Below are positions 5,847 to 30,980 of a stretch of DNA of 32,000 nucleotides, in pieces. Positions within the stretch are counted from its first letter, which is position 1, and each line of letters begins with the position of its first letter. The notes beneath the pieces were generated by a model. It did not search any database, had not been told where the DNA came from, and saw nothing but the letters and a program-made list of their open reading frames with translations. The DNA is from an uncultured Planctomycetota bacterium (GTDB taxonomy: Bacteria; Planctomycetota; Planctomycetia; Isosphaerales; Isosphaeraceae): contig CAWGMQ010000006.1 of NCBI GenBank assembly GCA_963823665.1, positions 1,790,865-1,822,864 on the forward strand, written 5' to 3'. The position numbers and the translations under genes are program-made.

Positions 5847-5893
5847 CTCTGAGTTGGTGAATCTGACTTCCCGTTGTTGCTAGTACTGCGGGC

Positions 5894-6065
5894 CGACCGC
5901 GATCCTCGACTGGGTCCTCTCAAAAGTCTCGAACTTGCCAAATTTGGCCTTGCGGCGGTATTTAAGGCTAGCAAGTGGGGTACTCGGGTTGAGGGGGCCG
6001 AATTCCGCGCGGAAGACCCCGGAGACGTGTCCCAACTCGTTGAATCCCGCTGTCCAGAACTTAAG
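5894..6065 (+). promoter_or_regulatory. Conserved sigma-gene leader, copy 1 (decayed arms)
   Basis: 5' arm TACTGCGGG (5894..5902) followed by CCGACCGCGAT. Palindrome TTCCGCGCGGAA at 6003..6014. TTGAATC followed by 3' arm CCCGCtGTc (6046..6054), which has 2 mismatches to the 5' arm. Confidence 0.35.
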
Positions 6066-6232
6066 ATGATCGAGATGTCGCCACCTCCAGGGCAGGTCTC
6101 CGGACTTGTCGCACGCGCCGCGGCAGGCGACCGGGCTGCGATCCTCGAGCTGCTCGAGCGCAAGATGCAGCTCGAGGACGCGCTCAACCGGATGGATCCG
6201 CTCGACCGCGAGATCCTCGTGCTGCGGCACTT
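6066..6232 (+). pseudogene. ECF sigma factor remnant (copy 1) with an internal in-frame deletion and 3' truncation
   Basis: It reads MIEMSPPPGQVSGLVARAAAGDRAAILELLER joined directly to KMQLEDALNRMDPLDREILVLRHF. The intact paralogue 7515..8168 has about 115 codons between ELLER and KMQL. Similarity ends near 6232. Confidence 0.8.
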
Positions 6233-6337
6233 CGACCCGATCTCCGGTCCCGACGGTTTTATTCGACCGCCTTCGGCGCATTGCCCGCCGCTCGTCCCGA
6301 CCGCGTGCGTTCTGTCGCGACTTTCCGGGGTTATGGC

Positions 6338-7328: not shown

Positions 7329-7514
7329 ATACTCCGGACCGACCGCGATTCTGGACTGAATTCCGTCAAAAAGACCTTTGCGGCGCCATATTTGGCCGCG
7401 AGGCGACATCTAAGGCTCCATTGTGCGATCCCGGGCTGACGAGAGCCCTATTCCGCGCGGAAGGCTGCGGAGACGTGTCGCCAACTCGTTGAAACCCGGA
7501 GTATAGAGCTTAAG
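7329..7514 (+). promoter_or_regulatory. Conserved sigma-gene leader, copy 2
   Basis: 5' arm ATACTCCGG (7329..7337) followed by ACCGACCGCGAT. Palindrome TTCCGCGCGGAA at 7451..7462. TTGAAAC followed by 3' arm CCGGAGTAT (7496..7504), which is a perfect complement of the 5' arm. The ATG lies 10 nt downstream. Confidence 0.5.
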
Positions 7515-8168
7515 ATGAGCGACATGTCACCACCGCCGGGACAGGTGCCGGACTTAGTCGCGCGCGCCGCGTCGGGCGACCGCGCCGCTATTGTCGAGCT
7601 GCTGGAGCGGTATCGCGGGCGGCTGCGGCGGATGGTGGCGATGCGCATGGATCCCAGGCTGCGCGGCCGCGTCGACGCGTCGGATGTCATCCAGGAGGGT
7701 TACCTCGAAGCCATGAACCGGCTCGAGGAGTTCATCCGGGACCCGTCCGTGCCGTTCTACATCTGGCTGCGGTTCCTGGTCGGCCAGCGGTTGCAGAAAC
7801 AGCATCGCCACCACCTCGGGACAACAGGCCGCGACGTTGGCCGCGAGGTTTCGATTTATCGGGGCGCGATGCCCGGCGCCAGCACAGGGGCCATCGCCGC
7901 CCGGCTCCTCGGCAAGCTGACGAGCCCCAGCCAGGCGGCGCGAAGGGCCGAGCGCAAGATGCAGCTCCAGAACGCGCTCAATCAGATGGATCCACTCGAC
8001 CGCGAGATCCTCGTGTTGCGGCACTATGAGCAGATGTCGAACGTTAACGCGGCGGCCGCACTGGGGCTGAACGAATCAGCGGCCAGCAAACGCTACACAC
8101 GGGCGCTCGAGCGGCTCAGGGAGATCATGGCCGCCTTGCCCGGGGGGATCTCCGAGGACATCCCATGA
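7515..8168 (+). CDS. ECF-type RNA polymerase sigma factor (copy 2, 217 aa) of the kind paired with a Ser/Thr kinase
   Basis: The sigma-2 region contains DASDVIQEGYLEAMNRLEEFIRDPSVPFYIWLRFLVGQRL. The sigma-4 HTH contains LDREILVLRHYEQMSNVNAAAALGLNESAASKRYTRALERLREI. The stop overlaps the kinase start (ATGA at 8165..8168). Confidence 0.9.
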   Translation: MSDMSPPPGQVPDLVARAASGDRAAIVELLERYRGRLRRMVAMRMDPRLRGRVDASDVIQEGYLEAMNRLEEFIRDPSVPFYIWLRFLVGQRLQKQHRHHLGTTGRDVGREVSIYRGAMPGASTGAIAARLLGKLTSPSQAARRAERKMQLQNALNQMDPLDREILVLRHYEQMSNVNAAAALGLNESAASKRYTRALERLREIMAALPGGISEDIP

Positions 8169-9574: not shown

Positions 9575-11888
9575 TCCCTGGATCGCCACGCTGGGCGCGG
9601 CGCTCGCAACACTGCTCCTGGCCGTGACGATCGCTTCGCTCATCGCGGTGGGCCGGTTTGCCGATCTGGCCACGCGTCAGGAGAACTCAGCGGCGGCAGA
9701 GCGATCGTCGCGCGTGGCGGCCGAGGCCGAAACTTACCGGGCGATGCTCAGCGAGGTCAGAGCGCTGCGAGCCGGTCGCCCGCTGGGCTGGCGCGACGGC
9801 GCCCTGGGCAACCTGGCCCGGATGACCAGGGCAACGACTCCGCGCCGCGATCTGGCCGAGCTTCGAAGCGAGGCGGTCGCCTGTCTCGGCGAGTTCGACA
9901 TTGTCGAAGTGGCGCGGCTGGAAAAGCGCGAGCAGCGGCTTTGGTCGCTTGCCTTCAGCCCTGACTCCCAGACCCTGGTCACTGCAACTCTCAACGGAGA
10001 CGTCGACCTCTGGGACGTAACGCGCAAGTGCCATCTCTGGCACGCCGCGGATCCGGCCGGCCAGATTCGGCCCAAAAACTGGCCGTCCATCGACGACCCG
10101 CTCATCAAGACTGTGTTCCTGCCGGACGGCACTTTGGGTCGGACTGCCTGGAGCCATCGCATTGAATTCCTTGACGCCAAGGGCCGGCCGACCGGTCGTC
10201 CGCCATTGAGCGGCGGTAAGGCCCAAGCGACTGGGCTGGAAACTGATCGCACGGGCCGTCGCCTTGCCGTCGGGTGGGATGACGGCCGCATCGAGATCCA
10301 CGATGCGGGCATGGGTATCGTTCGAACGATCGCCGGGAGCAGGCCCGATCTCAGGATCTTTGCAATGAGTCCAGACGGCCGGTGGCTGGCTCATCGTGGT
10401 CCGAACGATTCCGTCCAGATCCGTTCGATCGAATCCGAGGCACCGCCGGTGACGCTCGGGCGACATCGTGGTGAGATCACGTCTCTTACCTTCAGCCCCG
10501 ACGGCAACACCCTGGCCAGCACATCCTGGGACCACTCGGCGCGGCTGTGGGACGTAGCTCGCCGCGACGAACTCATGGCGCTCTACGGGCACAACGAAAC
10601 GGTGACGAGCCTCGCATTCAGCCCCGATGGCAACTGGATCGCCACCACGAGCCGAGACTATTCCGTGCGAATCTGGGAAGCCAGAACCGGCGAGACTTTG
10701 TCCTTGTTGCCGGGGCTGTGGTTCCGGCAAGTCGTCGCGTTCAGCCCCGACGGCCGTTATCTGGCGGTTGACGAGATTTCCAGATTTGGGACCGCCGCGC
10801 GCGCTCGACTTTACGAGCTCAGAGGCCGCCGCGCGCGGCGGCTGCTTGCCGGCCACTTGAATGGAGCCGAATGCCTTGCAGCGCACCCCGTCCTGCCCCG
10901 GTTCGCTTCGGGAGCCGACGATCATTGCGTCATCGTCTGGGACGCGGAGACGGGCCGTGCGCTAGAGCACTGGAGGGCCCACGTGCGGTTTGTCGGCGCG
11001 GTGGCGTACAGTCCCGATGGCAGCTTGCTCGCCACTGGACAAGGCGACCAGTCTTGCGAAGTTAAACTCTGGGATTCCGCGACCGGCTCGTTGCGCCATA
11101 CCCTCATGGGCCACGCAGCGCGCGTGTTTGCCATGACGTTCGACCACGCGGGCCGCCGGCTCGCCAGCGTGGACGGAAATGGAGTGCTGGTGATCTGGGA
11201 CGTGAACACGGGGCACATACTGCGCCGCGAGCCCGAGGGAACAGACATGGTTCGCGCAGTCGCCATCACGGAGGGAGATCGGTACGTTGTCACCGGTACG
11301 GGCTCGGGTCTCATTGTCTACGATCTGGATGGGAACGCACCGCCTCGAGTCATCCCGATTCCGCGGGGCGCGCGCGAATTCGTGATCGATCGCACGCGCG
11401 ATGATCTGATTGTCGCGGGCGCCGACGGTGCGCTCTCGCGAGTCTCGCTCCGCACTTTCGCCGCCGGCGAGCGGCTCGAGGCCGCGCACGACGGCGCGAT
11501 CGAAGCGATCGCAATCTCCGGCGACGGACGGATGCTGGCGACAGGAGGCAGAACGGACGGCCAGGTTTTTCTCCGCGATGCGCAGAGCTTCGACCTGCTC
11601 TTCGCCCTACCGCCGCGGACCGGGATCGTCAAGGACCTGGAGTTCGACGCTACCGGTCGATGGTTGGCGATGGCCGGCGCCGCTGCCGACATCACGCTCT
11701 GGGATCTGAACCTGCTTCACGAAGAGCTCGCCGCGATCGGTCTGGCCTGGGACCAACCGGCGGCCCCGATCGGGCCCGCGGCGAATCTGGCGGAAATCGC
11801 CGAGCGCGAAAGGCCAAATGTTCCGACCGTATGGCCCGGTAATCACGACCCTACCGAAATCGATGCAGCCAAGGGGCTTTCTCAATGA
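9552..11888 (+). CDS. TM helix plus WD40 beta-propeller segment, the +1-frame continuation of the copy-2 kinase gene (track ORF 9369..11888)
   Basis: From 9552 it reads [33 protein letters not shown] (TM helix). WD40-type repeats follow: LAFSPDSQTLVTATLNGDVDLWDV, LTFSPDGNTLASTSWDHSARLWDV, LAFSPDGNWIATTSRDYSVRIWEA, VAYSPDGSLLATGQGDQSCEVKLWD. There is no convincing start codon of its own at the homology boundary. Confidence 0.85.
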   Translation, partial: YWRWARRNPWIATLGAALATLLLAVTIASLIAVGRFADLATRQENSAAAERSSRVAAEAETYRAMLSEVRALRAGRPLGWRDGALGNLARMTRATTPRRDLAELRSEAVACLGEFDIVEVARLEKREQRLWSLAFSPDSQTLVTATLNGDVDLWDVTRKCHLWHAADPAGQIRPKNWPSIDDPLIKTVFLPDGTLGRTAWSHRIEFLDAKGRPTGRPPLSGGKAQATGLETDRTGRRLAVGWDDGRIEIHDAGMGIVRTIAGSRPDLRIFAMSPDGRWLAHRGPNDSVQIRSIESEAPPVTLGRHRGEITSLTFSPDGNTLASTSWDHSARLWDVARRDELMALYGHNETVTSLAFSPDGNWIATTSRDYSVRIWEARTGETLSLLPGLWFRQVVAFSPDGRYLAVDEISRFGTAARARLYELRGRRARRLLAGHLNGAECLAAHPVLPRFASGADDHCVIVWDAETGRALEHWRAHVRFVGAVAYSPDGSLLATGQGDQSCEVKLWDSATGSLRHTLMGHAARVFAMTFDHAGRRLASVDGNGVLVIWDVNTGHILRREPEGTDMVRAVAITEGDRYVVTGTGSGLIVYDLDGNAPPRVIPIPRGAREFVIDRTRDDLIVAGADGALSRVSLRTFAAGERLEAAHDGAIEAIAISGDGRMLATGGRTDGQVFLRDAQSFDLLFALPPRTGIVKDLEFDATGRWLAMAGAAADITLWDLNLLHEELAAIGLAWDQPAAPIGPAANLAEIAERERPNVPTVWPGNHDPTEIDAAKGLSQ

Positions 11889-11989: not shown

Positions 11990-14362
11990 CTAGGCTGGCT
12001 CAAGCGGGCGTCCGAAGCTGCGAAGTTGCGCGACCCGGAAGCCGTGGCGGCGAGCCGAATCGCGCAGGCGGCACAGACTCTCCGCCGTCAGGTCGGTACC
12101 AAGGCTGGAGTTTTGGAGATGCCCGTCCAAGGCCAGCAACATCGTCTCGGCCATGCAGGCATAAGCCAGCCCGGGTCCGAGCCCGAACCGACCGAGGTGA
12201 GGGCGGCCGGGGACTTCGATAATCCCGCCATCAATGATGAGCACATCGGGCCGCGCGATAGCGACTTCGGGGCCAACATTCGCCGGCCGCGACAGGTCGC
12301 AAACGACGGCCCCGGCCCGGAGCGATCCTGGGTTGATGATCGACCCGGTGGCGCTGGTGGCAGTGACAACCAGATCGGCCGACGGCAGGACCTCGTCGAC
12401 CGCTGTGGTCAGCATCAGGGCGCCCCGACGCTCCAGGCGGCCGACGAGCGCCGCGAACGCCTCGGCCGAGGCGTCAGGGTCGGGCGCCCCGCGGCACTCC
12501 GCCAGGAATCGGGCGAACAGCGAGCCCGAGACGAAGCTGCACCCTTGGCGGTAGCCCGTGGTCAGGTGCCGGCAGATGTCGGCGGCGACCGCCAGCAGCC
12601 GGCGGCGGATTGCGGCCGGGTCGCGGTCGGGGTTGCCGACGAGCGTGAGGCGGCCGACGTTTTCGGCGAGGAGCAGGGCAACCGCCCGCCCAATCGCCCC
12701 GCCCGCCCCGACAATCGTGGCTCGCGTAGCGGCGCCGAAGTAGCCGCCGAGGGCTACCACGGCTATCGCCGCCGCCTGGACCGATGACACGGCCGTGAAC
12801 GAGTTCCCCGTGGTTACCGGGATCCCTTCCCGCGACACGTCGAGGCCACCCCGGGTGGCGATCGACGTGAACGCACCCAGCCCAACGAGCTGGGCGCCGC
12901 GCGACCGGGCTAACCCCAGCGCGGCCCGAACGCCTGCGACCGCCTTACGACGTGGCATTGCTGCCATTTGCGCGGCGGTCCAGGGTAGCGCGATGAACTC
13001 GCCGAAGATCTTCTGGCCGCCCGCGGACGTGATCCGAGCCCGGCTGACAACGAACGGCTCGAGCAGGCCCGCAACGTCGCGGCCGACCGTCCGAAGCTCG
13101 TCCGAGTCCAGTACTTTGAGCGATGGGTCAAAGTCAGCGATGTTCGCGAAGACGGGCGTGAACAGGCCCTGTTCTGCGACCGCGCCCAGCAGGCTGTCGG
13201 GCCACAGATCGCGATTGACGCGGAACCGGACGCCTAGCATATACCCTCGTCCGCGAATTTCGGCGATCAGGTGCGGGTAACGGCGCGCCAGGGCCCCGAG
13301 CCGGCGACGCAGCCGCCGGCCGTTACGTGCGACCCGGCGGACAAGTCGGCGGTTGTCGCGGGTTAGCAGCTCCAGCGTCGCAAGGCCGGCGCGGCACGCC
13401 AGGGCGTTTCCGGCAAAGGTAGAGGAGTGCTTCATTGCGAAGGTTGACGTGTATGCCGCCTCGGAGCAGAGCACCGCTCCGATCGGAACCAAGCCGCCGC
13501 CAAGCGCCTTGGCGAGCGCCATCACGTCTGGAACCACTCCCTCGGCCTCGCACGCAAAGAGGGCCCCGGTGCGCCCCAGGCCGGACTGGATCTCGTCCAA
13601 GACGAGCAGGACGCCCGCATCACGGCAGATCGCACGCGCCTCTGCCAGGTACCCGCGGGGAGGCTCCACAATACCGCCTTCGCCCTGGATCGGCTCGACG
13701 AGGAACGCGGCGTAATGCGCCGGCCGCTCGGCGAGGGCGAGCCGCAGCGCGACGGCGTCTCCAAACGGAATCGCGTCGAAGTGTGGGGCGGGCGCCCCGA
13801 AGTCCTTCTGGTATTCGGCGTTGCCAGTCGCGGAGAGCGCCCCGAGCGTTTTGCCATGGAAGCTGCGGTCGGTTGATAAGATACCGAGGCGTCCCGTGGC
13901 GGCGCGGCAGAGCTTGATCGCTACCTCGATGGCCTCGGCGCCGCTGTTCGTGAATGTCACTCGCTCGAGGCCCTGTGGAGCGATCTCCACCAATCGTGCC
14001 GCGAGCTCCCCTGCGGGACCGACCAGCGAGGGTTGTACGAAGCTGGGCTCGCGTCGGTCGCGCACGCCCTCAAGCGCTCGCCAGATCGCGGCAGGGTTGA
14101 AGCCAAACGGCAGGGCGCCGTAGGCGGCGATGCAATCCAGGTAACGCCGACCCTCGTCGTCATAAAGTTCAGTTCCTTTCCCCCGCGCGAAATGCTTATC
14201 GAGGCGGATCCTGCCGAGGAGATCGGCCAGGTAGGGGTTGACGTGGCGGGCGAAGGGATGGGCCTCACTGAGGCCGCCGGATTCGTCCATCGGGCTAATG
14301 GAGGATGAGGAAAGCGGGCTGATTTGATCACCGTTCGGCTTCCCTGTAGGTGCGGTTTTCAT
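11990..14362 (-). CDS. Bifunctional fusion: a class-III PLP aminotransferase (N-terminal) joined to an acyl-ACP-reductase-like NAD(P)-dependent reductase domain (C-terminal); 790 aa
   Basis: The N-terminal half carries FTNSGAEAIEVAIKL, FLVEPIQGEGG, LVLDEIQSGLGRTG and DVMALAKALGGG, which are aminotransferase class-III signatures including the PLP lysine context. The C-terminal half carries LGAFTSIATRGG, VTTGNSFTAVSSVQAA, ATIVGAGGAIGRAVALLL (Rossmann), ADLVVTATSATG, VLIIDGGIIEVPG and AYACMAETMLLALDG. From memory these align with cyanobacterial acyl-ACP reductase (LGGFTSII, FTTGNTHTAYV, VAVVGATGDIGSAV, MFACFAEAMLLEFEG, which contains the catalytic Cys). Confidence 0.8.
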   Translation of the reverse strand: MKTAPTGKPNGDQISPLSSSSISPMDESGGLSEAHPFARHVNPYLADLLGRIRLDKHFARGKGTELYDDEGRRYLDCIAAYGALPFGFNPAAIWRALEGVRDRREPSFVQPSLVGPAGELAARLVEIAPQGLERVTFTNSGAEAIEVAIKLCRAATGRLGILSTDRSFHGKTLGALSATGNAEYQKDFGAPAPHFDAIPFGDAVALRLALAERPAHYAAFLVEPIQGEGGIVEPPRGYLAEARAICRDAGVLLVLDEIQSGLGRTGALFACEAEGVVPDVMALAKALGGGLVPIGAVLCSEAAYTSTFAMKHSSTFAGNALACRAGLATLELLTRDNRRLVRRVARNGRRLRRRLGALARRYPHLIAEIRGRGYMLGVRFRVNRDLWPDSLLGAVAEQGLFTPVFANIADFDPSLKVLDSDELRTVGRDVAGLLEPFVVSRARITSAGGQKIFGEFIALPWTAAQMAAMPRRKAVAGVRAALGLARSRGAQLVGLGAFTSIATRGGLDVSREGIPVTTGNSFTAVSSVQAAAIAVVALGGYFGAATRATIVGAGGAIGRAVALLLAENVGRLTLVGNPDRDPAAIRRRLLAVAADICRHLTTGYRQGCSFVSGSLFARFLAECRGAPDPDASAEAFAALVGRLERRGALMLTTAVDEVLPSADLVVTATSATGSIINPGSLRAGAVVCDLSRPANVGPEVAIARPDVLIIDGGIIEVPGRPHLGRFGLGPGLAYACMAETMLLALDGHLQNSSLGTDLTAESLCRLRDSARRHGFRVAQLRSFGRPLEPA

Positions 14363-14724
14363 CGGAGGCGTTCTCTTTCTGAGCAGGTCTGGACGAGCCG
14401 GAGCGCGCAGATTTCGGCGGCCGCCACGTTCATCCGCATTTCCCGCTGCGTTTGTTAGCCCGCAGGCCGGCCGGCTCGTCAGTGTCGTCCGGCGCCGAAC
14501 CAGGGCAGAAGAGCGGCGCCCGCAGCGGAATGAGCAAACGGCGAATCGCGCTCGCTCGCCGAGAGTTAGCCCGACAGAACGTTGACTGTCACACTCTCGG
14601 AATGGCTGCCGTCGGTCCTCTCCTCGACAGGAGATTCGGGTTGCTGAGCGTCTTGGCGATCAGTGACCCGATATCCCTTATCCGCGCGCCGATCAGAAAG
14701 CGTGACTGCCCGTCTTACTACTCA

Positions 14725-14974
14725 TACTGCGAGCCGACCGGAATGCTCGCCTGGCCTTGGCTTTTTTCGTCTCCGTTTGTTGAAACGGCGGGTTCCAGGG
14801 CGTTGCCCTGGGCTGATTTGTTACTGCCCCTTCGGGGCGAGGAGTCAGTCATTCGGCGACCGCCTCGTTAGAATCGACCAGAATCGGTTAGCCGGTTCCG
14901 CCGAGTCCCACGCGCGCAAGAACCGGGAGCCTTTTTTGTCTCCGTTTATTGAAACTCGCAGTACTGTAAGTACT
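14725..14974 (+). promoter_or_regulatory. Conserved sigma-gene leader, copy 3, carrying a 170-bp duplication/insertion
   Basis: 5' arm TACTGCGAG (14725..14733) followed by CCGACCGGAAT. 3' arm CTCGCAGTA (14955..14963) directly after TTGAAAC. The 25-26-nt block CTTTTTT(C)GTCTCCGTTT(G/A)TTGAAAC occurs twice, at 14761..14786 and 14931..14955. Confidence 0.5.
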
Positions 14975-15628
14975 ATGGACGAGCTGTCGCCACCTCCAGG
15001 ACAGGTCCCCGGAGTTGTCACGCGCGCCGCCGGAGGCGACCGGGCTGCTATCGTCGAGCTGCTCGAGCGCTACCGCGCCCGGCTGCGCCGAATGGTGGCG
15101 CTGCGGCTGGACCCCCGGCTCCGGGGGCGGGTCGACGCCTCGGACGTGATCCAGGAGGGCTATCTCGATGCGATGCGGCGGCTTGAGGAGTTCATCCAGG
15201 ATCCGGCCGTGCCGTTCTACATCTGGCTGCGGTTCCTGGTCGGCCAGCGGGTGCAGGAGCAGCACCGGCGGCACCTCGGCACCTCCGGCCGGGATGACGG
15301 CCGCGAGGTGTCGATCTACCGGGGCGCCATGCCCGGCGCCAGCACCGGGGCCCTGGCCGCCCGGCTGCTCGGCAAGCTCACGAGCCCCAGCCAGGCGGCG
15401 GTGCGGGCCGAGCGGAAGGTCCGGCTCCAGGAGGCCCTTAACCGCATGGACCCGCTCGACCGCGAGATCCTGGTCCTGCGCCACTACGAGCAGATGACCA
15501 ACGGCGATGCCGCCGCGGCCCTGGGGCTCTCGTTCAAGGCGGCGAGCAAACGGTACACGCGCGCGCTCGAGCGGCTCGAGAAGATCCTGAATGCCTTACC
15601 CGGAGACCCGGGAGGGCAGGGATCATGA
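14975..15628 (+). CDS. ECF-type sigma factor (copy 3, 217 aa)
   Basis: It starts MDELSPPPGQVPGVVTRAAGGDRAAIVELLERYRARLRRMVALRLDP and is collinear with copies 2 and 4 at the same length (654 nt). The longer track ORF from 14663 adds a non-conserved extension that overlaps the leader. ATGA overlap with the kinase stub at 15625..15628. Confidence 0.85.
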   Translation: MDELSPPPGQVPGVVTRAAGGDRAAIVELLERYRARLRRMVALRLDPRLRGRVDASDVIQEGYLDAMRRLEEFIQDPAVPFYIWLRFLVGQRVQEQHRRHLGTSGRDDGREVSIYRGAMPGASTGALAARLLGKLTSPSQAAVRAERKVRLQEALNRMDPLDREILVLRHYEQMTNGDAAAALGLSFKAASKRYTRALERLEKILNALPGDPGGQGS

Positions 15629-15702
15629 GCGAACGATCTGTCGATCGCGATCCCTTCGGGGGCATTGCCGAGTCGTTCCTGGCACGGTTCCGGACTGGTT
15701 AA
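15625..15702 (+). pseudogene. N-terminal 25-codon stub of the copy-3 Ser/Thr kinase
   Basis: [25 protein letters not shown] matches [29 protein letters not shown] of copy 4. DNA similarity stops at 15699/15700, where a TAA follows. Confidence 0.8.
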
Positions 15703-15863
15703 CCGTTTGTCGGAGCTGCAGCGTGGCTGACGGCTTCGCCGGGACCATTCTGGCCACTCCCTGCTGGGCCGGACTGATCGCGATCGACAACCCGTGTATA
15801 GCCATTCACATTTGCGCTTACATTTAAACAACGGGTTGCCACACTACCACACTATGTTTGGGA

Positions 15864-15892
15864 TTGACGAGATTCCTGCCGCCTTGTAGATA
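15864..15892 (+). promoter_or_regulatory. Candidate sigma70-like promoter for the methyltransferase gene
   Basis: TTGACG (15864..15869), a 17-nt spacer, then TAGATA (15887..15892), about 68 nt upstream of the ATG at 15960. This is a pattern match only, and the -10 box is weak. Confidence 0.25.
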
Positions 15893-15959
15893 GAGCAAGC
15901 CACCAAGCAGGCCTTTTTGCACCTTTGGTACAAGTGATCACACACAAGTGAGGCTCAAC

Positions 15960-16736
15960 ATGCCCCAAGTGAAACAGACGGGGGTCAGTGGTCGTGACCA
16001 TTACGACAGCCTTTTTCAGAATGAACTTGATCGAGAAGCGGAGTGGCTTGATCGCACCGCAGGACACAAGGCCGATTCGATAGAGCGGTTGCTCAAGAAG
16101 AACAACATCGAGTGTGATACCCTTCTCGAACTCGGGTGTGGCACAGGCTCGGTCATTCGTGAGTGTCAGCGGCGTAAAATTGCCAAGTCTTATATCGCAG
16201 TGGATTACTCCGACACCGCAATAGACTATTTGAACAGTAATTCAAACGAAATTGAAACACATTCATTTGATGTCACTTCAGAAGATTTCTCATTCAATAG
16301 GCCGGTTGATGTGGTTGTCGTGAGCCATGTCATCGAGCATCTCGAAGAACCGCTTGCCTTCTTGCAATCGTTGCGGCGCCTTAATTTCAAATACCTGGTT
16401 TCCGAGGTTCCGCTCGATGATCTACTTATGGGCAGGCTTAGCGCTTTGGCGAAGGAGGATCGGACTCAGAATCTTGCCGGTCACGTGCAGTTTTTCACAG
16501 CCTCATCGTTTCGCCGGCTATTAGAATCGAGCGGGATGAAGGTGATCGATACTCGCAGATATTTGCCATTACTCGATAGAGAGACAATCAAATTTGTGTG
16601 CAAGAAGAACAAATCTTCGAATCTAACATATTGCAAAATGCTGTTCGGTCGATATCTGAGGCTCGCATTGGGGCCGATCTGGGCCTATTTCTTTAGCGCA
16701 CATTACGCGGTGCTCTCTCGGTTCTCTCCGGAATAA
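15960..16736 (+). CDS. Class I SAM-dependent methyltransferase (258 aa from the ATG at 15960) in a low-GC islet
   Basis: SAM-binding motif I is LLELGCGTGSVIRE, followed by an acidic loop AVDYSD and VVVSHVIEHLEEP. The ATG at 15960 is preceded by GTGAGG; the track ORF starts at a GTG at 15948. GC is far below the flanks (22/60 at 16201-16260 and 30/60 at 16081-16140, against 48/60 at 15301-15360, hand counted). Confidence 0.8.
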   Translation: MPQVKQTGVSGRDHYDSLFQNELDREAEWLDRTAGHKADSIERLLKKNNIECDTLLELGCGTGSVIRECQRRKIAKSYIAVDYSDTAIDYLNSNSNEIETHSFDVTSEDFSFNRPVDVVVVSHVIEHLEEPLAFLQSLRRLNFKYLVSEVPLDDLLMGRLSALAKEDRTQNLAGHVQFFTASSFRRLLESSGMKVIDTRRYLPLLDRETIKFVCKKNKSSNLTYCKMLFGRYLRLALGPIWAYFFSAHYAVLSRFSPE

Positions 16737-16770
16737 CATCAAGGGCCACGCGAAACGGCACGGCCCCGAA

Positions 16771-18117
16771 CAGGAGGTCCGTGCGAATATCTCGCATTCA
16801 GCCCTGACGGACGATTCTTTGTCACGGGTTTCCGCTCTGCGGATCACGTGTGCGCCAAGCCCATCGACCTCTGGGACACCGCCTCGGGGCGAAAGCTCTC
16901 CTCGTTGCCGGGGACATTCGCTCCGGCCGCATTCCAGGCGGCGGGCGATTACCACGGACTGGTTCGGTTCTGGGATACGTCCAGCGGCCGGGAGATCGGG
17001 CAGCCGCTTCCTCAAAGGGAGATCGATCTGGCCCTGGCCTACAGCCCGGATGGCAAGACGCTGGCGGTGGGGCTCGCCGAAGTTTTTACACACAAGCCGG
17101 GCACTCGACTCTGGGATACCGCGACAGGCCGGCCCATCGGCGAATTGTTGCCCAGCGTTGCGGGCGTGACCCGAATCGAGTTCCGTCCGGACGGTCGCGC
17201 CCTGCTCACGTGCGGCGGTTCCACCCGGCTGTGGGATGCCGTCCGGGCGCAGGCAATGGGTGAAGAAATTATTGACGATCAGGCCGGCGGATTTCGTCCG
17301 GATGGCCGCGTATTCCTCACACTGGGATCGGACCGGTTCGACAAATCGGCCGCCGATTACCGTGAGGCCGAGCGGCTCGGTAAGCGAGACGATGTGCGGG
17401 ACTTCCAGATTCACTGCGTCGTCGATTGCACCAAGGCCGAGCGCTGGGCCGAGGCCCTCTGGTATCTCGACCGCCTGATCGCCGCACGGCCAGGGGACGG
17501 GACGCTGCACGAGGACCGCGCAGCGGTCTACGGCAAGCTCGGCCGCGAGGCCGAGCGCCAGGCCGAGCTGGCAAGCGTGTTTGCGCTGGGAGCTGACGAG
17601 GGGCTCGTGATCGCGCGGGCCGAGGAGCTTGGCCGCGGCGGCCGCTGGGCCGAGGCCGCGGGCCTGCTGGCGCGCGGCGGGAGGGCAGGCCCGCTCAGTT
17701 CGGTTCTGGCCCAGGCCTGGGGCATCGCCTGTCTGCGGGCCGGCGATCGCGCCGGCTACCGCGAGGCCTGCGCGGCGTTCATGGACTACCAGGGGCCGGA
17801 CCCGACGGTCGTCTGGAACGCACTCGCGGCGGCATCGTTCTTCGCCCTGGGGGCCGAGGGCCTGGACGACTACCGGGTGCCGATGCGATGGATCGAGCGC
17901 CGGCTTTCCGCCAGTCCCACGCTGAACCCCGTAATCAAACATTACTTCTCGAACGTTCTGGGAGGCCTCTCGCTCCGCGCCGGGCGGCTGGACGATGCGA
18001 TTGGCCGCGTCAACGAAGGAATTGCCGCCGCGAACCAAGTGGAACTGCCCACCGACTGGGCTCACCTGGCCCTGGCCCATGCGCTCAAGGGGAACCTGGC
18101 TGAAGCCCGCCGCGGTC
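16771..18117 (+). pseudogene. C-terminal debris of the copy-3 kinase (WD40 plus helical-repeat region) with two internal in-frame deletions and a 3' truncation (track ORF 16848..18206)
   Basis: GGPCEYLAFSPDGRFFVTGF...PIDLWDTASGRKLSSLPGTFAP is collinear with copy 4 at 23084 onward. It then jumps to GDYHGLVRFWDTSSGREIG (copy 4 near 24380). It jumps again from FLTLGSD to RFDKSAADYREAERLG (copy 4 near 25385). Similarity ends after LAEARR at about 18117. Confidence 0.8.
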
Positions 18118-18130
18118 ACGCCGGAGAGTC

Positions 18131-19260
18131 TCAGCCTCCGAATTCCACGATGAGGCCTTGCAGCAGGATGTTGGCCGGACCCGAGAGGGCCTCTGCCTGG
18201 GCCTGAGTCAAAATGCCGGCCTTGCGGAACGCGGCAACCTCACTCAGGAACGTCTGCACCTTGCTGGTGTCGCCGTTGTTGCCTTTAAGGATCAGCTTCA
18301 CACCGACGGAGTCGGCCTGCGCCGCGTTCAGCACCCCCGCCGCCTCCAGCGTTTCCACCTGTTCCTCGAGGTCGGCATCCTGCTGGGTCGATCGACGCCA
18401 CGGTGATCGCCACGCTGGCATCCGAGCTGATGTTGCCGAGGCTGACGGCGAGGCTCAGCGTGTCGGCGCCGCTGAAATTGAGGCCGCCGCGGTAGACCAG
18501 GGTGGCCAGGGCGGCTTTGAGCTCGACCGTGCTGCCGGTCAAGGACACCGAGCCGCTGCCGTTGCCGGTGGCCGTCAAGCCGCTGGTCGTCCCCAGGGTC
18601 AACGTGCCGTGGCCGACGGCGAGGGTGACCGTCAGGCTGCCGCTCTGCCCGCTGCCGATGGTGATGCCGCTGATGGCCTGGCCCACGTTCTCGTAGGCGG
18701 TCAGGGCGGCCGGGACGGTGATGGCCGGGCTGCCGGCCAGCAGGGCGATGGTCTTGGTCGGGCCGCCGTTGTTGGCCAGCCCGGCGGCCGCGAACTTCGG
18801 GCTGCCGATGCTGATGGCAGCGGTCCCGGGGGCCCCGGTCAACGCGCTCGACCCGGTTGCGTCCAGGCTGAGCAGGTCGTTTCTGCTGCCGGACAGTTTG
18901 GGGGCGCCGGCGCCATGGATGGCATTGGCGTAGAAGTCGCTGACGGTGGTGGTGCCGTTCTGGCCGAGGATGCTGTTGACGATCGTGGCCGTGGCGGTAG
19001 CGCCGCTGAAGCCGCTGCCGGAGCTGCTGTCGCTGAGAACGTAGACGTCGCTGGCGGTGCCGGCGCTGCTATTGCCGCTCGCGACGGCGTTGCCGCTGAA
19101 GGTGTCGAAGGTGGCGGCCAGGGTGCCGTTGCGTATGAAGACGGCGCCGCCGTCGCCTTGCCCCGCGCTGCCGTTGTTGCCGCCGCTACCGCCGGCGCCG
19201 GCGGTGGCCTTGTTCTGGGTGAAGGTGTCGTTGGTGAGGGTGAGTGCGCCGCCGGTGCTG
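18131..19260 (-). pseudogene. 5'-truncated, frameshifted paralogue of the beta-helix surface protein (pmp-like repeats plus a helical-hairpin tail)
   Basis: GGALTLTNDTFTQNKATAGAGG...GGAVFIRNGTLAATFDTFSGN...VYVLSDSS...IVNSILGQNGTTTVSDFYANAI parallels the 1..3473 protein (GGTLTLTSDTFTGNTAAGG...VYVLSDGS...VVNSILGQNASTTVSEFYASAI). There is no N-terminus or start codon. The tail QQDADLEEQVETLEAAGVLNAAQADSVGVKLILKGNNGD...LLQGLIVEFGG* is in a different frame (ORF 18131..18421), with the switch near 18386. Confidence 0.75.
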
Positions 19261-20319
19261 GTCGGCGTCGTAGGGCTGGTAACGGCTGCGGCGCAGCTCC
19301 CGGGCCAGGGCGTTGGCCGGCTCCAGGCAGGCGGCGGCCTCGGCGTGCTCGCCCCGCGCGTCGGCGACATGGGCGAGGGCAAAGAGCAGGTTCATCCGCA
19401 CCACCGGGGCGATCGGCCCGTGCATCGCGAAGCGGAGCCGGTCGCGGTCGGCCTCGGGCAGCCGGCCGCGCACGAGCACCGCCCGCCGCGCCAGCGGCAA
19501 CGGTGACTGCGGATGACGGGTCTCGGCCTCGTGGTAGCACGCCTCGGCCTCGGCCATGGCCCCGAGCTCCTCGTGCAGTGAGCCCAGGCTGATCCACGAG
19601 TCCAGGTGATCGGGTCGCAGCTCCAGGGCGCGGCGATAAGCGGCCTCGGCTTCGGCATGGCGGCCGTCGGACAGGTAGGCCCAGCCGAGCTCGTTGTGCG
19701 CGTCAGCATCGGCCGGCTTCTTCAGGGCGCGGCGCTCGCAAAGCTCAACCGCGGCGGGCCAGTCCTCGGCCTGGCCGTGGACGTAGGCCAATTGCAGCCA
19801 CAGGGCGTCATCTTCGGGGGCCAGCTCGGCGGCCCGGCGCGAATGCGCGAGGGCAACGACCGGCTTGCCCTGCCCAAGGAGCGCCAGGCCCAGGTTGGCG
19901 TGCGCGACGGCCAGGTCGGGCTCTAGCCGGAGGGCCTCGGCATAGGCATCGGCCGCCTCGGCCCACCGCTCCAGGCCGCGCAGAACGTTGCCGAGGTTGT
20001 TGAGCGCCTCGGGGTAGTCCGGCCGCAGGCGGAGGGCCGAGCGGCAGCTTTCGGCGGCTTGCTCGCGCTGGCCCAGGGCACGCTGGATCTCGGCGAAGTT
20101 GGCATGATACGTGGCGACGTCGGGCCGCAGCTCGATGGCCCTGCCCGTTAGCTCGACGGCACGGGCGGAGTAACCGCACTGGTGATGCAAGACGCCAAAC
20201 AGGTGCAGCACGTTAGCGTCATCAGGATCGCGGTCCAGCAGGGCCTGGTAGGTGCGGCCCGCGTCGGCGTAGCGACCGGCCTGATGGCATTCCCAAGCGT
20301 TCATCAAGTCCGGACTCAT
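19261..20319 (-). pseudogene. TPR protein paralogue that has lost its sulfotransferase domain (track ORF 19186..20319)
   Basis: MSPDLMNAWECHQAGRYADAGRTYQALLDRDPDDANVLHLFGVLHHQCGYSARAVEL... is collinear with 3570..5846 as far as ANALARELRRSRYQPYD (compare ANALALAQRRKQGKHYNPDG). The sequence then abuts beta-helix coding sequence in another frame. Confidence 0.8.
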
Positions 20320-20501
20320 CTTGTGACTCCGTCAAGAGCTGCGAGGTTCTGGTTGCATAAGGTCAGGATTGGTTGCACGGCGCGTGGACCGACCTCTCGG
20401 GGCTAACCCGCGGCGACAACGCGACGCTGGTGCTCCGCGGCTCAGACGCTGGTCATCACGATCCCTGGCGGGCCTTGTCCTCTCCTTGGGCTTACCACCT
20501 A

Positions 20502-20580
20502 TACTGCGAGGCGACCGCGATGCTCGCCTGGCTTTGGCTTTTTTTTGTCTCGGTTTATTGAAACTCGCAGTACTGTAAGT
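20502..20580 (+). promoter_or_regulatory. Conserved sigma-gene leader, copy 4 (most compact form)
   Basis: 5' arm TACTGCGAG (20502..20510) followed by GCGACCGCGAT. A T-rich tract follows, then TTGAAAC and the 3' arm CTCGCAGTA (20564..20572). The ATG lies 8 nt downstream. Confidence 0.5.
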
Positions 20581-21234
20581 ATGGACGAGATGTCGCCACC
20601 TCCAGGACAGGTCCCCGGAGTTGTCACGCGGGCCGCGGCGGGCGACCGGGCTGCGATCGTCGTGCTGCTCGAGCGCTACCGCGCCCGGCTTCGCCGGATG
20701 GTGGCGCTGCGGCTGGACCCCCGGCTCCGGGGGCGGGTTGACGCCTCGGACGTGATCCAGGAGGGGTACCTCGATGCGATGCGGCGGCTCGAGGAGTTCA
20801 TCCGGGATCCGGCCGTGCCGTTCTACATCTGGCTGCGGTTCCTGGTTGGCCAGCGGGTGCAGGAGCAGCATCGGCGGCACCTGGGCTCGCCCGGCCGGGA
20901 TGTCGGCCGCGAGGTGTCGATCTACCGGGGCGCGATGCCCGGCGCCAGCACCGGGGCCCTGGCCGCCCGGCTTCTCGGCAAGCTCACGAGCCCCAGCCAG
21001 GCGGCGGTGCGGGCCGAGCGGAAGGTTCGGCTCCAGGAGGCCCTTAACCGCATGGACCCGCTCGACCGCGAGATCCTGGTCTTGCGCCACTACGAGCAGA
21101 TGGCCAACGGCGATGCCGCCGCGGCCTTAGGGCTGAAGTTCAAGGCGGCGAGCAAACGGTACACGCGGGCGCTCGAGCGGCTCGAGAAGGTCCTCAATGC
21201 CTTACCCGGAGACACGTCAGGGCAGGAGCCATGA
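20581..21234 (+). CDS. ECF-type sigma factor (copy 4, 217 aa)
   Basis: MDEMSPPPGQVPGVVTRAAAGDRAAIVVLLERYRARLRRMVALRLDP...LDREILVLRHYEQMANGDAAAALGLKFKAASKRYTRALERLEKV. It is 654 nt long like copies 2 and 3. ATGA overlap with the kinase at 21231..21234. Confidence 0.9.
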   Translation: MDEMSPPPGQVPGVVTRAAAGDRAAIVVLLERYRARLRRMVALRLDPRLRGRVDASDVIQEGYLDAMRRLEEFIRDPAVPFYIWLRFLVGQRVQEQHRRHLGSPGRDVGREVSIYRGAMPGASTGALAARLLGKLTSPSQAAVRAERKVRLQEALNRMDPLDREILVLRHYEQMANGDAAAALGLKFKAASKRYTRALERLEKVLNALPGDTSGQEP

Positions 21235-23759
21235 GCGAGCCATCGGTCGATTGCGATCCTTTCGAGGGCGTAGCGGAGTCGTTCCTGGCGCGGTTCCGGG
21301 CTGGTGAGCGTCCCAGCATCGTCGAGTACGCCGCCCGCCACCCCGAGCTGGCCGACCAGATTCGCAGGCTGCTGCCGGCGCTGGTGATGGTCGAGCAAGA
21401 CCTCTCGATCGACGTCGACGCGGCTCCGGCCGGCCGGGATGCGATCGAGAGCCAGTCGAGGCGGCTGGGTGATTACCGGATCGTGCGTGAGATCGGGCGC
21501 GGCGGCATGGGGGTGGTCTATGAGGCCGAGCAGGTCAGCCTGGGCCGACGGGTGGCGCTCAAAGTTTTGCCCGGCCACGTGGTGGGCGACCGCCATGCCC
21601 TGGAGCGGTTCCGACGGGAGGCGAAGGCCGCAGCGCGGTTGCACCACACCAACATCGTGCCGGTTTTCGAGGTCGGGCAAGAGGGCGAGGTCGCTTTTTA
21701 CGCGATGCAGTTCATTCAGGGCCAAGGGCTCGAGCAGGTCATCGCCGAGCTGCGGCGGCTGCTCGCGCCGGGTCTCGACGCCGGCGAGGCCGGAACGGGC
21801 CGGGCCGAAGGCCTCGAGGCATCGACGACCGTCGGGGCGTCGCGGGTTTCCGTGAAGTCGATCCTCCGGCAGCGCGAGCTCGGCCAGCTTGCGGAATCTG
21901 TGCTGACCGGCCGCCTGATGAGGGACGGGACGGAACGGCCGGCGACCAACCCGCCCACGACGAACGCCGCTGTCGCTACGGAAGGATTCGGCTCAAACGC
22001 GACCGCCGCACTGGCGCCCTTGGCCGCCAAGGAGGGGCAACCTCCGGCTCGCCCCGGTTCCACCAACCTGTCGGGCTCGGCGATGCTGCCGGGCGGCACG
22101 CACATCTCCGAGATCGATTCCTCGGGCCGCCGGCAGCCGTTCTTCCGGAGCGTCGCGCAGATCGGCAGGCAGGCAGCGCAAGGGCTGGCCTACGCGCACT
22201 CACGCGGCATCATCCACCGCGACATCAAGCCGTCGGACCTGCTGCTGGATTCGGCGGGAGTGGTCTGGATCACCGACTTCGGCCTGGCCAAGGCGGAGGA
22301 AGACGGGCTGACCGCGACCGGCGACATCCTGGGGACGTTCCGATACATGGCGCCTGAGCGGTTCCGCGGGCTGGGGGACGCCCGCGCCGATGTCTATGCG
22401 CTGGGGCTGACCCTGTACGAGCTGCTGACCCTCCGGCCGGCGTTCGAATCGTCCGACCGGCTGAAGCTGGTCGAGCAAGTCAAGACCGCAGAGCCAGTCC
22501 ACCCCCGATCGATCGACCGCCACATCCCCCGCGACCTCGAGACGATCGTTCTGAAGGCGATCGAGAAGGAGCCCGGAGCGCGGTACCAGTCGGCCGACGC
22601 GATGGCCGAGGACCTGCGGCGGTTCCTGGCCGACGAGCCGATCAAGGCCCGCCAGGTCAGCACCTCGGAGCGATACTGGCGGTGGGCCAGGCGGAACCCC
22701 GTGATCGCGACACTGGGCGGCGTGCTGGGGATGGTGCTCGTCGCGGTGACGATCGGCTCGACATTGGCGGCGGCTTATTTCAAGGAGTCGGCCCGGCGCG
22801 AGACGAACCTGGCCGCGCGCGAGCAACTGGCGAATCAGCAATCGCAGCGCGATCGGCAAGCGGCCATCGAAGAGCGCGATCATTCGCGCCGGCTGTCCGC
22901 AGGTCTGGCGCTCGACAAGGGGATCGCCCTGGCCGAAGAGGGTCACGCCGACCGGGGCTTGCTCTGGATGCTCGAGGCCCTCAAGACGGCCCCGGACGAA
23001 GCGGAGGGATTTCAGAATGCGGTTCGCTGGAACCTGGGTGCCTGGCTCGGGCAGGTTCACAAGACGCTGCGGATCGTCGATACAGGCGGTCCCTGCGATT
23101 ACGTCGCCTTCAGCCCGGACGGACGATCGTTTGCAACGGGTTTCAATCCACATGACCGTGCGATAGCAACGCCCATCAACCTGTGGGACACCGCCTCGGG
23201 ACAAAAGCTCTCCTCCTTGCCCGGTGCTTTCGCCCCGTTCGCCTTCCGACCGGACGGAAAAGTCCTCGTCGCTCGCGACGACCAGCGCCGCGTCGTTGCC
23301 ATCGATCTGATCACGGGGCGGGTGCTCTGGACGACGTCGCAGCCCCTCGGACAGCACGGGGAATGGATCGAGTTGAGTCCGGACGGCTCAACGGCTTTTG
23401 TCACTTATACTGACAACTCAGAGAGTTGGTGGTTATCGCGACTCGACGTGGCGACGGGCCGGGGCGCGGAGAGCCGATCCGGAGCAGTGGATCGGCTGCT
23501 GCCGCCCCTGACGGCAGGATGGTCGCGATCCGCCGAGTCGAGAACGGTAAGGCGTTCATCGATGTGCTCGACCTCCCCTCGGGCCGGCGAACGGCGAGCT
23601 GGCCAGCCGCCGAGAACGCCCTTTCCCTGTTACTCTTCAGCCCCGACGCCCGGTCGCTGTTCGTGTCGGAAAATAAGCGATCTGTCATCAACCAGAACAA
23701 CAGCTTCTTCGGTCAGGTCTGGGATCCGGGCAAGGGAAGACCGATTACTGCTCCCATGA
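21231..23759 (+). CDS. Ser/Thr kinase, TM helix and first WD40-like region: upstream segment of the frameshifted copy-4 gene (meaningful to about 23470)
   Basis: Kinase motifs are [35 protein letters not shown] and YMAPE. The TM helix is [27 protein letters not shown]. After ...[14 protein letters not shown] the translation turns into low-complexity nonsense, while the -1 frame becomes WD40-like. Confidence 0.9.
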
Positions 23760-30089: not shown

Positions 30090-30980
30090 GACTCGAATTT
30101 TCGGATGTCGCGCTGTCACGGCCGATCTCATCGTGGAAGCCGGTGCAGGCCGACCTCGTCCAGCGCCGGCAGCTTCCGGATCGGCTGATCGAGGTGCTTC
30201 CACGTCGGCGAAGACGAGCTCGACACGTATCTTCTGGAAATTGCCCTTACCCCGAAGCACGTGTGCGAGTGAGGTAATGGACGACATCGCATCTTCGTCG
30301 CTGGGCGACATCTACTCCGGAGGTCGTGGTCCTATTCCTCTACCCCAAGGGAAATGTCTTGCCGGCGGAAACCATCAAGTTGAAGAGCCGCCAGGGCTCT
30401 ACGACATCGGATGCGTCATCGCACATCGTCAAGCTGTCGGAAGTGCCGGTTGGCGAGCTTCTGGCGACCGGCGATATGGGTGTAGTCCGTGGGTACGGCT
30501 GGCGAGATTCGGATGGACCGCCTGAGCCGATCATCCGCGAATGCCGAGCTCGCATCGACAAAGTCGGCTCGCGCCGTCGAGAAGGAATATCTACTCGCAG
30601 TGACTGCTCAATTCCTGGCACGCTTTCGGATAATACGGGGCAGATGCTTCGAGATCCTGGGAGGGCGGAAAGGAGTTGATCGAGTCGCCGCTGCTCAAGG
30701 ACTCGAGAAGAATGGACCCGAAGAGGGAGAAGCGCAAAGGGAAGCGCGAAGGGAAACACAAAGGAAAGCACAAAGGGAAGCGCGAAGGGAAGCGGAAGGG
30801 AAGCACGAGAAGGGGAAACGCGAAGGGGAAATCGGATTGCTCATGACGTTCTTGATACAGCAGTTGGCACCCAAGCTCGTCGCTCAAGACGGAGATCACG
30901 GCGATCGCCGATGACGCGCGGTTGAAAGACTTGATCGAGCATGCCGCCACGTGCCGGAGCCTGGCGACGTTTCGCAGAAG
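30090..30980 (+). pseudogene. Multiply frameshifted remnant of an Rpn/YhgA-like PD-(D/E)XK recombination-promoting nuclease / putative transposase (boundaries approximate)
   Basis: The pieces lie in three frames. They are VVVLFLYPKGNVLPAETIKLKS...HIVKLSEVPVGELLATGDMGVV (ORF 30326..30679); a K/E/R/G-rich repeat (30726..30831); GEIGLLMTFLIQQLAPKL (30825..30878); and LKTEITAIADDARLKDLIEHAATCRSLATF (30883..30975). From memory, the order and wording resemble Rpn-family proteins with a DUF4351-type C-terminal module. This was not verified by any search. Confidence 0.4.
30726..30831. repeat. Degenerate 12-nt purine-rich tandem repeat, consensus GGGAAGCRCGAA, 9 units, inside a 118-nt T-free stretch
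   Basis: The units are GGAGAAGCGCAAA, GGGAAGCGCGAA, GGGAAACACAAA, GGAAAGCACAAA, GGGAAGCGCGAA, GGGAAGCGGAA, GGGAAGCACGAGAA, GGGGAAACGCGAA and GGGGAAA. No T occurs on the + strand from 30714 to 30831. Confidence 0.85.

Follow-up and report, generated by a model that had tools for sequence, protein, structure and literature searches.

Inverted arms upstream of kinase-linked ECF sigma genes in an Isosphaeraceae genome as probable back-to-back sigma promoters

Extracytoplasmic function (ECF) sigma factors usually control their own expression from a promoter that lies ahead of the sigma gene (PMC7826278), and in the ECF43 EcfP/PknT and EcfK/PknS systems the ECF sigma is activated through phosphorylation by a Ser/Thr kinase (PMC8999054, PMC13147305). 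The present analysis concerns a 32-kb stretch of DNA (the window, 32,000 nt; G+C ~66%) from an uncultured planctomycete (assembly GCA_963823665.1, contig CAWGMQ010000006.1), whose nearest relatives belong to the Isosphaeraceae (Planctomycetota) and comprise Aquisphaera insulae and several metagenome-assembled genomes. The window contains four modules that pair an ECF sigma gene with a Ser/Thr-kinase/WD40-TPR gene, and each of the four sigma copies is faced by a minus-strand gene. A first-pass annotation had reported a leader with inverted, complementary arms in front of every sigma copy, and had read the arms as an RNA helix that would occlude the translation start. We consider it probable that each arm is instead the -10 region of a promoter, and that each pair of arms marks a back-to-back pair of promoters recognised by the ECF sigma encoded beside them.

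Like autoregulated ECF promoters, the proposed sigma promoter is bipartite, has fixed spacing, lies directly upstream of its own operon and is conserved among orthologues. Familiar ECF promoter consensus sequences include GGAACTT-N16-TCAAA for sigma-E, TGAAAC-N16-CGTA for sigma-W and TGTCACA-N16-CGTC for ECF41. The proposed -35 is of the GTC type found in ECF41, whose promoter geometry is similar, rather than of the AAC type. Unlike in the usual ECF promoters, the proposed -10 is long (nnnGCAGTAy) rather than CGT(C), and the start codon follows within 8-13 nt, probably giving a leaderless mRNA. As in back-to-back divergent bacterial promoters, a single intergenic region would serve both directions, and identical boxes facing in opposite directions appear as an inverted repeat. 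In contrast to ordinary promoters of this arrangement, a single alternative sigma appears to be used by the two promoters, and from one paralogue to the next their -10 boxes change together.

Arms of 9-10 nt were verified in all four modules. Those of copies 4, 3 and 2 lie at 20502-20510/20564-20572, 14725-14733/14955-14963 and 7329-7337/7496-7504, separated by 53, 221 and 158 nt, respectively, exactly as the first-pass annotation had them. For copy 1 it had correctly placed the 3' arm (CCCGCtGTc, 6046-6054), but the 5' arm (TACTGCGGG) lies at 5884-5892 rather than at 5894-5902, and the loop is 153 nt rather than 143 nt. The distance from arm to ATG, given as 8-11 nt, was measured as 8, 11, 10 and 11 nt in copies 4, 3, 2 and 1. 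Two further boxes that had been ascribed to every leader each have an exception, CGACCGCGAT being replaced by CGACCGGAAT in copy 3 and TTGAAAC by TTGAATC in copy 1.

A single 9-nt inverted repeat per ~250 nt is not rare, with an estimated ~0.1 per region. Arm pairs were, however, found at the same place in 14 further Isosphaeraceae loci from other genomes, fetched via the sigma protein, and the arms are kept complementary across all 18 loci (four from the window and 14 related), so that the co-variation first noticed within the window holds after homologues are added. Several loci have their own arm variants, namely CTGGCAGTA/TACTGCCAG in L002 and L013, CCCGCGGTA/TACCGCGGG in L010, and GCAGTC/GACTGC in L016 and L017. 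In an 18-locus alignment of both arms plus 6-nt flanks, the 10-nt arm is 91.7% paired compared with 37-38% for the flanks, and double-sided changes occur at 7/10 arm pairs. When partners were shuffled among 15 non-redundant loci, none of 20,000 shuffles was as good as the observed pairing (11 mismatches against a mean of 26), a figure that is inflated in that some partners had first been located by reverse-complement search. A hidden Markov model (HMM) built from the sigma-proximal sites alone recovered most minus-strand partners, but not those of L010 or L137, and that of L008 only weakly. The co-variation of the arms is thus real, because it recurs in 14 other loci, is never matched by shuffles and is largely recovered by a model of the sigma-proximal sites. 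A metagenome scan for close loci yielded only three more (L081, L082 and L137), and homologues of 50-60% identity, searched for pairs of sites that had diverged further, contained no convincing one beyond a possible pair in L071.

The conservation extends beyond the arms. The upstream DNA of sigma orthologues is fully diverged apart from four blocks, which appear in the order A (A/T-rich, often palindromic), ~12 nt, B (nGTC(C/T)C, often extended to ..AAyC), 15 nt, C (nnnG(C/G)AGTAy) and, 6-8 nt past block C, D (TA(A/G)), followed by the start codon; an A/T-rich block stands ~12 nt upstream of GTC in most sites. The 3' arm is block C of a directional bipartite motif, nGTCnC-N15-nnnG(C/G)AGTAy, and GTC stands 17 or 18 nt before the 10-mer in 18/18 plus-strand sites, against a background of 0-1 per offset. 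The B-C pair is present upstream of ~46 homologues, reaching ~38% protein identity (counted by a regular expression in which the C/G position of block C was left free), and in 38/46 of these loci the gap between the end of block C and the first in-frame ATG/GTG is 8-13 nt, most commonly 8 nt. The GCAGTA core is near-invariant, such that six positions of the 10-mer are essentially fixed as sequence and not merely as complementarity, while variation falls on the three bases that precede GCAGTA and on a few positions inside it; the two copies of block B at a locus show no co-variation. A TTG occupies a fixed position in the spacer of most plus-strand sites, and of plus-strand sites only.

On the minus strand, the 5' arm reads as another complete copy of the directional B-C motif. 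GTC precedes block C by exactly 18 nt in 15/18 minus-strand sites (background again 0-1 per offset); often TAAG follows the site by 7-8 nt, and often an A/T block precedes it. The best upstream matches of the sigma-proximal HMM are all on the minus strand, every match down to E ~2. The CGACCGCGAT box is the spacer of this site (ATCGCGGTCGG) and is conserved in W1-4, L006, L010, L022 and L082; its candidacy as an independent motif was dropped, as outside the window it is intact only in L010 and is looser in L006, L022 and L082.

The position of the minus-strand copy tracks the divergent gene and not the sigma gene, and the distance between the plus- and minus-strand sites ranges from 53 to 575 nt. 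In L016/L017, for example, the minus-strand site lies 575/571 nt from the sigma site, with a minus-strand beta-helix (NosD-like) gene starting ~55 nt beyond it, and in L002, L003, L007, L010, L013 and L022 such a site precedes a TIGR03032/DUF4915 gene. Within the window, block C of the copy 1 minus-strand site is 36 nt upstream of the TPR-sulfotransferase start (5846), and the divergent gene of copy 2 begins 70 nt beyond the corresponding block. The number of copies is also variable: three are present in L014 (532-572, 1112-1150 and 1361-1400) and two in L013 (1088-1121 and 1341-1381), whereas none was found in L004, where the upstream gene is a co-directional threonine dehydratase, or in L001, the closest orthologue (90% identity), both of which keep the sigma-proximal site. 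The two sites in L013 differ in class (CCCGCAGTAC and CTGGCAGTAC), which hints that one target gene may be served by two sigma paralogues. The upstream region of L001 (1-1500) contains an open reading frame (ORF) for an IS200/Y1-type transposase, together with tandem GC-rich repeats (GGCCAGGGGGCTGACGCCCCCCGCTCGCCCGGAAACGCGA) resembling repetitive extragenic palindromic elements. Segments similar to the one conserved downstream of the copy 4 divergent site (20451-20500) occur in L002, L007, L013 and L022, ahead of a TPR or DUF4915 gene; it is probably the 5' untranslated region (UTR) of the divergent gene, or may be a small upstream ORF. Two additional box-like sequences in the window, CGCAGTA at 11218-11224 (-) and CCGGAGTA at 30313-30320 (-), have the wrong GTC spacing and were taken as chance occurrences.

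In the sigma70 family, region 2.4 reads the upstream part of the -10 element. In the sigmas studied here, the paralogue classes differ in GQRVQEQHRRHL, the helix after FYxWL, which aligns with AINTAKNH of AlgU/sigma-E, and region 2.4 reads RLQKQHRHH in copy 2 but RVQEQHRRH in copies 3 and 4. When every locus with a recognisable site is tallied, the position of this helix that corresponds to Glu95 of copy 4 holds Lys in 14/14 sigmas with a GGAG box and a residue other than Lys in 38/38 sigmas with a GCAG or GCGG box; copy 2, an RLQKQH sigma with CCGGAGTA at both of its sites, is among the Lys/GGAG cases. Glu-cytosine and Lys-guanine are classic protein-DNA contacts. The recognition helix of sigma-4, AASKRYTRAL, is invariant, and likewise block B. 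The match between residue and box points to a tie between block C and the DNA-reading surface of the sigma, and the arms would co-vary because one sigma paralogue serves as the reader of the two boxes in its module.

The match also recurs in different parts of the sigma phylogeny. In a neighbour-joining tree of the sigmas, built with region 2.4 masked, copy 2 belongs to the Glu/GCAG clade, within or beside the main Lys clade fall L091 and L106 (both Ile, GCAG) and L100 (Thr, GCGG), and L071 and L133 form a separate Lys lineage; judging from these placements, the residue-box association has arisen independently at least three times. Orthogonal ECF sigma/promoter pairs and the rewiring of -10 specificity have reportedly been described by Rhodius et al. 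(2013) and Campagne et al. (2014). The present modules resemble such pairs in having paralogue-specific promoter variants matched to the DNA-reading surface of sigma-2, and differ from them in being natural tandem paralogues within one 32-kb stretch, with an apparent switch at a single Glu/Lys position, matched to a C/G base, that is deduced from comparison only. A bolder proposal, to which we give slightly less than even chances, is that the tandem modules are insulated sigma-promoter pairs, in which Glu or Lys in region 2.4 sets whether C or G is accepted in the upstream portion of a -10 box of unusual length, and each paralogue drives only its own leaderless operon and divergent target.

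These observations suggest the following model, in which the motif architecture, spacing, orientation, divergent-gene link and residue-base correlation are computed, and sigma binding, the transcription starts, autoregulation and sigma activation by the kinase are inferred. At the plus-strand site, block B would serve as the -35 and block C as the -10 in front of the sigma start codon, allowing positive autoregulation of the sigma/Ser-Thr-kinase operon. Because block C ends only 8-13 nt before the start codon, the sigma/kinase mRNA is proposed to be leaderless or nearly so, with transcription probably starting at or next to the start codon. The minus-strand promoter would drive the divergent gene, which encodes a TPR/sulfotransferase, TIGR03032/DUF4915, PEP-CTERM or beta-helix protein. 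The inverted repeat would then exist because the same box is written on both strands, and the two arms would lie upstream of the 5' ends of two different transcripts. The box is expected to vary with region 2.4 of the paralogue, Glu going with GCAG and Lys with GGAG. The decay of the dead copy 1 fits this promoter model: decay is limited to its sigma-proximal box (GCTGTC), and the divergent box, which precedes an intact gene, has kept the consensus.

Several points weigh against this model. The -35/-10 assignment rests on geometry and on the correlation with the sigma residue, and the motif GTCnC(..AAyC)...GCAGTA is not the textbook ECF AAC...CGT, though it holds AAyC and AGTA. The minus-strand sites of copies 3 and 4 carry GGC in place of GTC, and lie 361 and 181 nt, respectively, from the divergent start codon, and L011 and L012 have a divergent kinase gene yet no minus-strand site. 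The A/T block and GTC can be read as a GGAA-N16-GTC ECF promoter, which would place block C in the 5' UTR, and in the Lys clade the GGAGGT of block C, 8 nt from ATG, resembles a Shine-Dalgarno sequence. Finally, the arms pair in the minimum-energy fold if the whole spacer is transcribed.

The last point bears on the RNA helix of the first-pass annotation, in which both arms would lie on one plus-strand mRNA and pair over a variable loop, hiding the sigma/kinase translation start. Complementary arms, one of them beside the start codon, are indeed seen in RNA leaders that sequester a ribosome-binding site, and the arms co-vary and pair in the minimum-energy fold of the whole region, with z = -1.99 for copy 2. 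Compared with shuffles, that value is marginal and the fold of copy 4 (z = -0.86) does not stand out, and the folding of these two leaders has no power to separate the RNA and promoter models. Rfam 15 gives no matches anywhere in the window at gathering thresholds. The compensatory changes that had been taken to indicate a helix do not support one: pairing ends at the 10-mer, the GCAGTA core is conserved as sequence, and G·U is not favoured among the mismatches, of which a hand count of 10-mer pairs gives ~8 compatible with G·U, 5-7 A·C and 6 transversions. Moreover, the 5' arm has its own GTC at -18 on the opposite strand and is probably upstream of the transcription start, and in copy 1 the gap of 37 nt between the divergent start codon and the 5' arm leaves scant space for a promoter further upstream. 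The partner arm can be dispensed with or multiplied, L001 and L004 keeping the 3' arm alone and L013 and L014 having two and three 5' copies, and a dedicated helix is untenable because a single 3' arm can face zero, two or three partners. The link between arm variant and sigma residue likewise has no RNA rationale, and we regard the RNA helix as very improbable.

Other readings were also weighed. The first-pass annotation had kept a DNA inverted repeat bound by a regulator as a fallback, and had cautioned that the 5' arm overlaps a -10-like hexamer. The caution was well placed, since both arms look like -10 boxes, and the repeat does seem to act as DNA, the likely binder being sigma-RNA polymerase at two promoters rather than a looping regulator. 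A pair of operators, at which a separate factor binds the two inverted boxes, perhaps with the DNA looped, and so governs the divergent genes on either side, would account for an inverted repeat in a shared intergenic region, and a palindromic A/T-rich block of the GAA..TTC type (e.g. TTCCGCGCGGAA) beside most sites could be the true binding site of such a factor. It is nevertheless improbable, given that the sites are directional and bipartite, with promoter-like spacing and no internal dyad, that the site-to-site distance varies from 53 to 575 nt, that the plus-strand box is held at 8-13 nt from the start codon, and that the box variant is paralogue-specific, the sigma being the only paralogue-specific DNA-binding protein of the module and its region 2.4 tracking the box. 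About as improbable is a shifted promoter, in which the -35 would be the GGAAAAAT-like A/T block and the -10 would be TGTC, and the arms are a Shine-Dalgarno-like or protein-binding RNA element in both 5' UTRs. Its GGAA-N16-GTC resembles canonical ECF promoters, and the GGAGGT block of the Lys-type clade, 8 nt before ATG, suits such an element. On the other hand, the A/T block is missing in about one third of sites (e.g. the plus-strand sites of copies 3 and 4, L007, L016, L017 and L022) and is seen as an A-run or T-run whatever the site orientation; GCAGTA cannot pair with the anti-Shine-Dalgarno sequence; the minus-strand boxes lie 36-361 nt from start codons; and the region 2.4 correlation points to DNA contact by the sigma. 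The shifted assignment is thus less likely than block C as the -10. A Shine-Dalgarno reading of block C as such was rejected, as it fits the GGAGGT clade only, and neither GCAGTA nor the minus-strand sites. A sigma-54 promoter (GG at -24 and GC at -12; TGGCAC-N5-TTGC) was likewise rejected, since only the CTGGCAGTA variants resemble TGGCA and most sites have CGCAGTA without GG. The arms might also be terminal inverted repeats of an insertion in front of the sigma genes, left by an element like a miniature inverted-repeat transposable element, an origin that the inverted termini, the variable interior and a 168-nt insertion flanked by a 25-nt duplication in copy 3 might suggest. This origin is scarcely credible, as the interiors are unrelated between loci, the arms keep a constant place relative to the start codon across genera, and neither target-site duplications around the arms nor further copies elsewhere in the window were found.

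The features of the window that bear on the promoter model are collected in Table 1.

Table 1. Promoter elements and genes of the four sigma/kinase modules (coordinates within the window)
Feature	Coordinates	Strand	Remarks
Copy 4 block C (proposed -10), CTCGCAGTAC	20564..20573	+	3' arm of the first-pass annotation
Copy 4 block B (proposed -35), GTCTC	20547..20551	+	17 nt upstream of block C
Copy 4 spacer TTGAAA (within TTGAAAC)	20558..20563	+	
Copy 4 block C, CTCGCAGTAT	20501..20510	-	5' arm of the first-pass annotation
Copy 4 spacer (CGACCGCGAT box; minus strand ATCGCGGTCGc) and weak -35 AGGCGA (20524-20529)	20511..20529	-	
T8/A8 tract between the back-to-back sites	20539..20546	.	block A position of the minus-strand site
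Conserved segment (aggtGGTAAGCCC...GGGATCGTGATGACC; also aggtGGTAAGCCC...CCGGGGTCGTGATGACC) downstream of the divergent site	20451..20500	-	~50 nt
Copy 3 block C, CTCGCAGTAC	14955..14964	+	GTC at 14938-14940
Copy 3 block C, CTCGCAGTAT	14724..14733	-	
Copy 2 block C, CCCGGAGTAT, GGAG variant	7495..7504	+	GTC at 7477-7479
Copy 2 block C, TCCGGAGTAT	7329..7338	-	GTC (minus strand) 7354-7356
Copy 1 block C, decayed, CCCGCTGTCC	6046..6055	+	ahead of the sigma pseudogene
Copy 1 block C, intact, CCCGCAGTAC	5883..5892	-	GTC 5908-5910; consensus match (perfect class I site)
ECF sigma copy 4, 217 aa	20581..21234	+	first ATG 20581; second ATG 20590, conserved
Ser/Thr kinase with beta-propeller, downstream of sigma copy 4	21231..23759	+	
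ECF sigma copy 3	14975..15628	+	
ECF sigma copy 2	7515..8168	+	region 2.4 = RLQKQHRHH
Sigma copy 1, pseudogene with internal deletion	6066-6400	+	repeat families D5, D12
TPR-sulfotransferase, divergent gene of copy 1	3570-5846	-	
Weakly PEP-CTERM-like protein, divergent gene of copy 2	6338-7258	-	
Aminotransferase, divergent gene of copy 3	11990-14362	-	
TPR protein, divergent gene of copy 4	19186..20319	-	presumed target of the copy 4 minus-strand site

The sigmas of the modules are 217 aa proteins, in which the only Pfam domains are Sigma70_r2 and r4_2. Against TIGR02984 (Sig-70_plancto1, "Planctomycetaceae-specific subfamily 1"; curated cutoff 183.75 bits), copy 2 scores 191.2 bits and copy 4, just below the cutoff, 183.2 bits. 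The start of the Pkinase gene overlaps the sigma stop codon, and sigma copy 4 and its kinase are co-transcribed. The region 2.2 motif of the sigma is DASD, invariant in every homologue in which it could be located (~140 loci, copies 2, 3 and 4 included), and its Ser, which takes the place of Glu in the canonical DAED, is, by analogy with ECF43, a plausible phospho-acceptor for the co-encoded kinase. The modules are thus similar to ECF43 and EcfK in that the sigma lies beside a Hanks-type kinase, without an anti-sigma, and has an altered acidic motif in region 2.2. They differ from ECF43 in sigma family (TIGR02984), in having WD40/TPR on the kinase and in the motif itself (DASD compared with STTA), and phosphorylation here is a prediction only.

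A number of other features were observed around the plus-strand sites. A sigma70-like arrangement, TTGnnn-N16-18-TAnnAT-N7-ATG, overlaps them (20558-20592, with equivalents in copies 2 and 3), and we speculate that such a promoter would start at the conserved second ATG (ATGTCGCCACC), perhaps giving basal expression. L006, L011 and L012 lack the first ATG but retain TAnnAT or TAAGAC. A simple scan of 20300-20700 for sigma70 promoters and terminators gave no matches. The palindrome TTCCGCGCGGAA is perfect at 6003-6014 (copy 1) and 7451-7462 (copy 2), ~12 nt upstream of the GTC block, and elsewhere the block A position is occupied by GGAAAATTCC, GAATTCCCCCGGAATTC or TTTCGCGAAA; the palindrome might bind a dimeric factor or act as an UP-like element. 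The copy 3 leader (14787-14955) corresponds to the copy 4 leader with the 168-nt insertion, whose flanking 25-nt duplication is of the -35/spacer (CTTTTTTGTCTCCGTTTrTTGAAAC), the first duplicate having no -10 box. The insertion carries two GC-rich hairpins, CCAGGGC..GCCCTGG and GCCCCTTCGGGGC, and no second copy of it was found in the window.

Two of the modules are degraded. Sigma copy 1 has a deletion of ~113 codons that removes the sigma-2 domain and fuses residues ~1-31 directly to ERKMQLEDALNRMDP, and past the deletion its reading frame continues into the minus-strand gene at 6338-7258. In copy 3 (15624-18206) the kinase has been lost or replaced: ~75 nt of its 5' end are left (repeat D17), followed by a methyltransferase gene (15948-16736) in a low-GC stretch (0.52 compared with ~0.67) and then by a WD40/TPR remnant (16848-18206). 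Repeats also occur outside the modules. Seven tandem 258-nt units, 77-88% identical, occupy positions 5-1950, within ORF 433-2049, which encodes a repeat protein of 86-aa units with no Pfam match. GCC/GCG-rich repeats (CGCCGCCGCC..GAAGCC) are present at 2500-3000 and 19160-19260, and segments of ~70-180 nt are common to 1950-2400 and 18835-19260 (repeat families D6, D15 and D16). The shared GCC/GCG-rich segments point to more duplicated genes flanking the sigma modules.

The pairing of an autoregulated ECF promoter with a divergent target promoter is a well-known principle, and the most interesting part of the present model is the Glu/Lys-to-C/G switch. A candidate for a new RNA leader gives way to a promoter model that can be tested, for a large and uncharacterised family of planctomycete ECF sigmas paired with kinases. 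The model predicts leaderless sigma mRNAs and a likely regulon of TPR-sulfotransferase, TIGR03032/DUF4915, PEP-CTERM and beta-helix proteins. The recurrent match of Glu/Lys to C/G suggests how tandem paralogues may avoid cross-talk, and could be used for orthogonal expression parts. If the modules are indeed insulated pairs, they would represent a simple, evolvable switch of ECF specificity, and the first promoter model for the kinase-linked ECF sigmas of planctomycetes.

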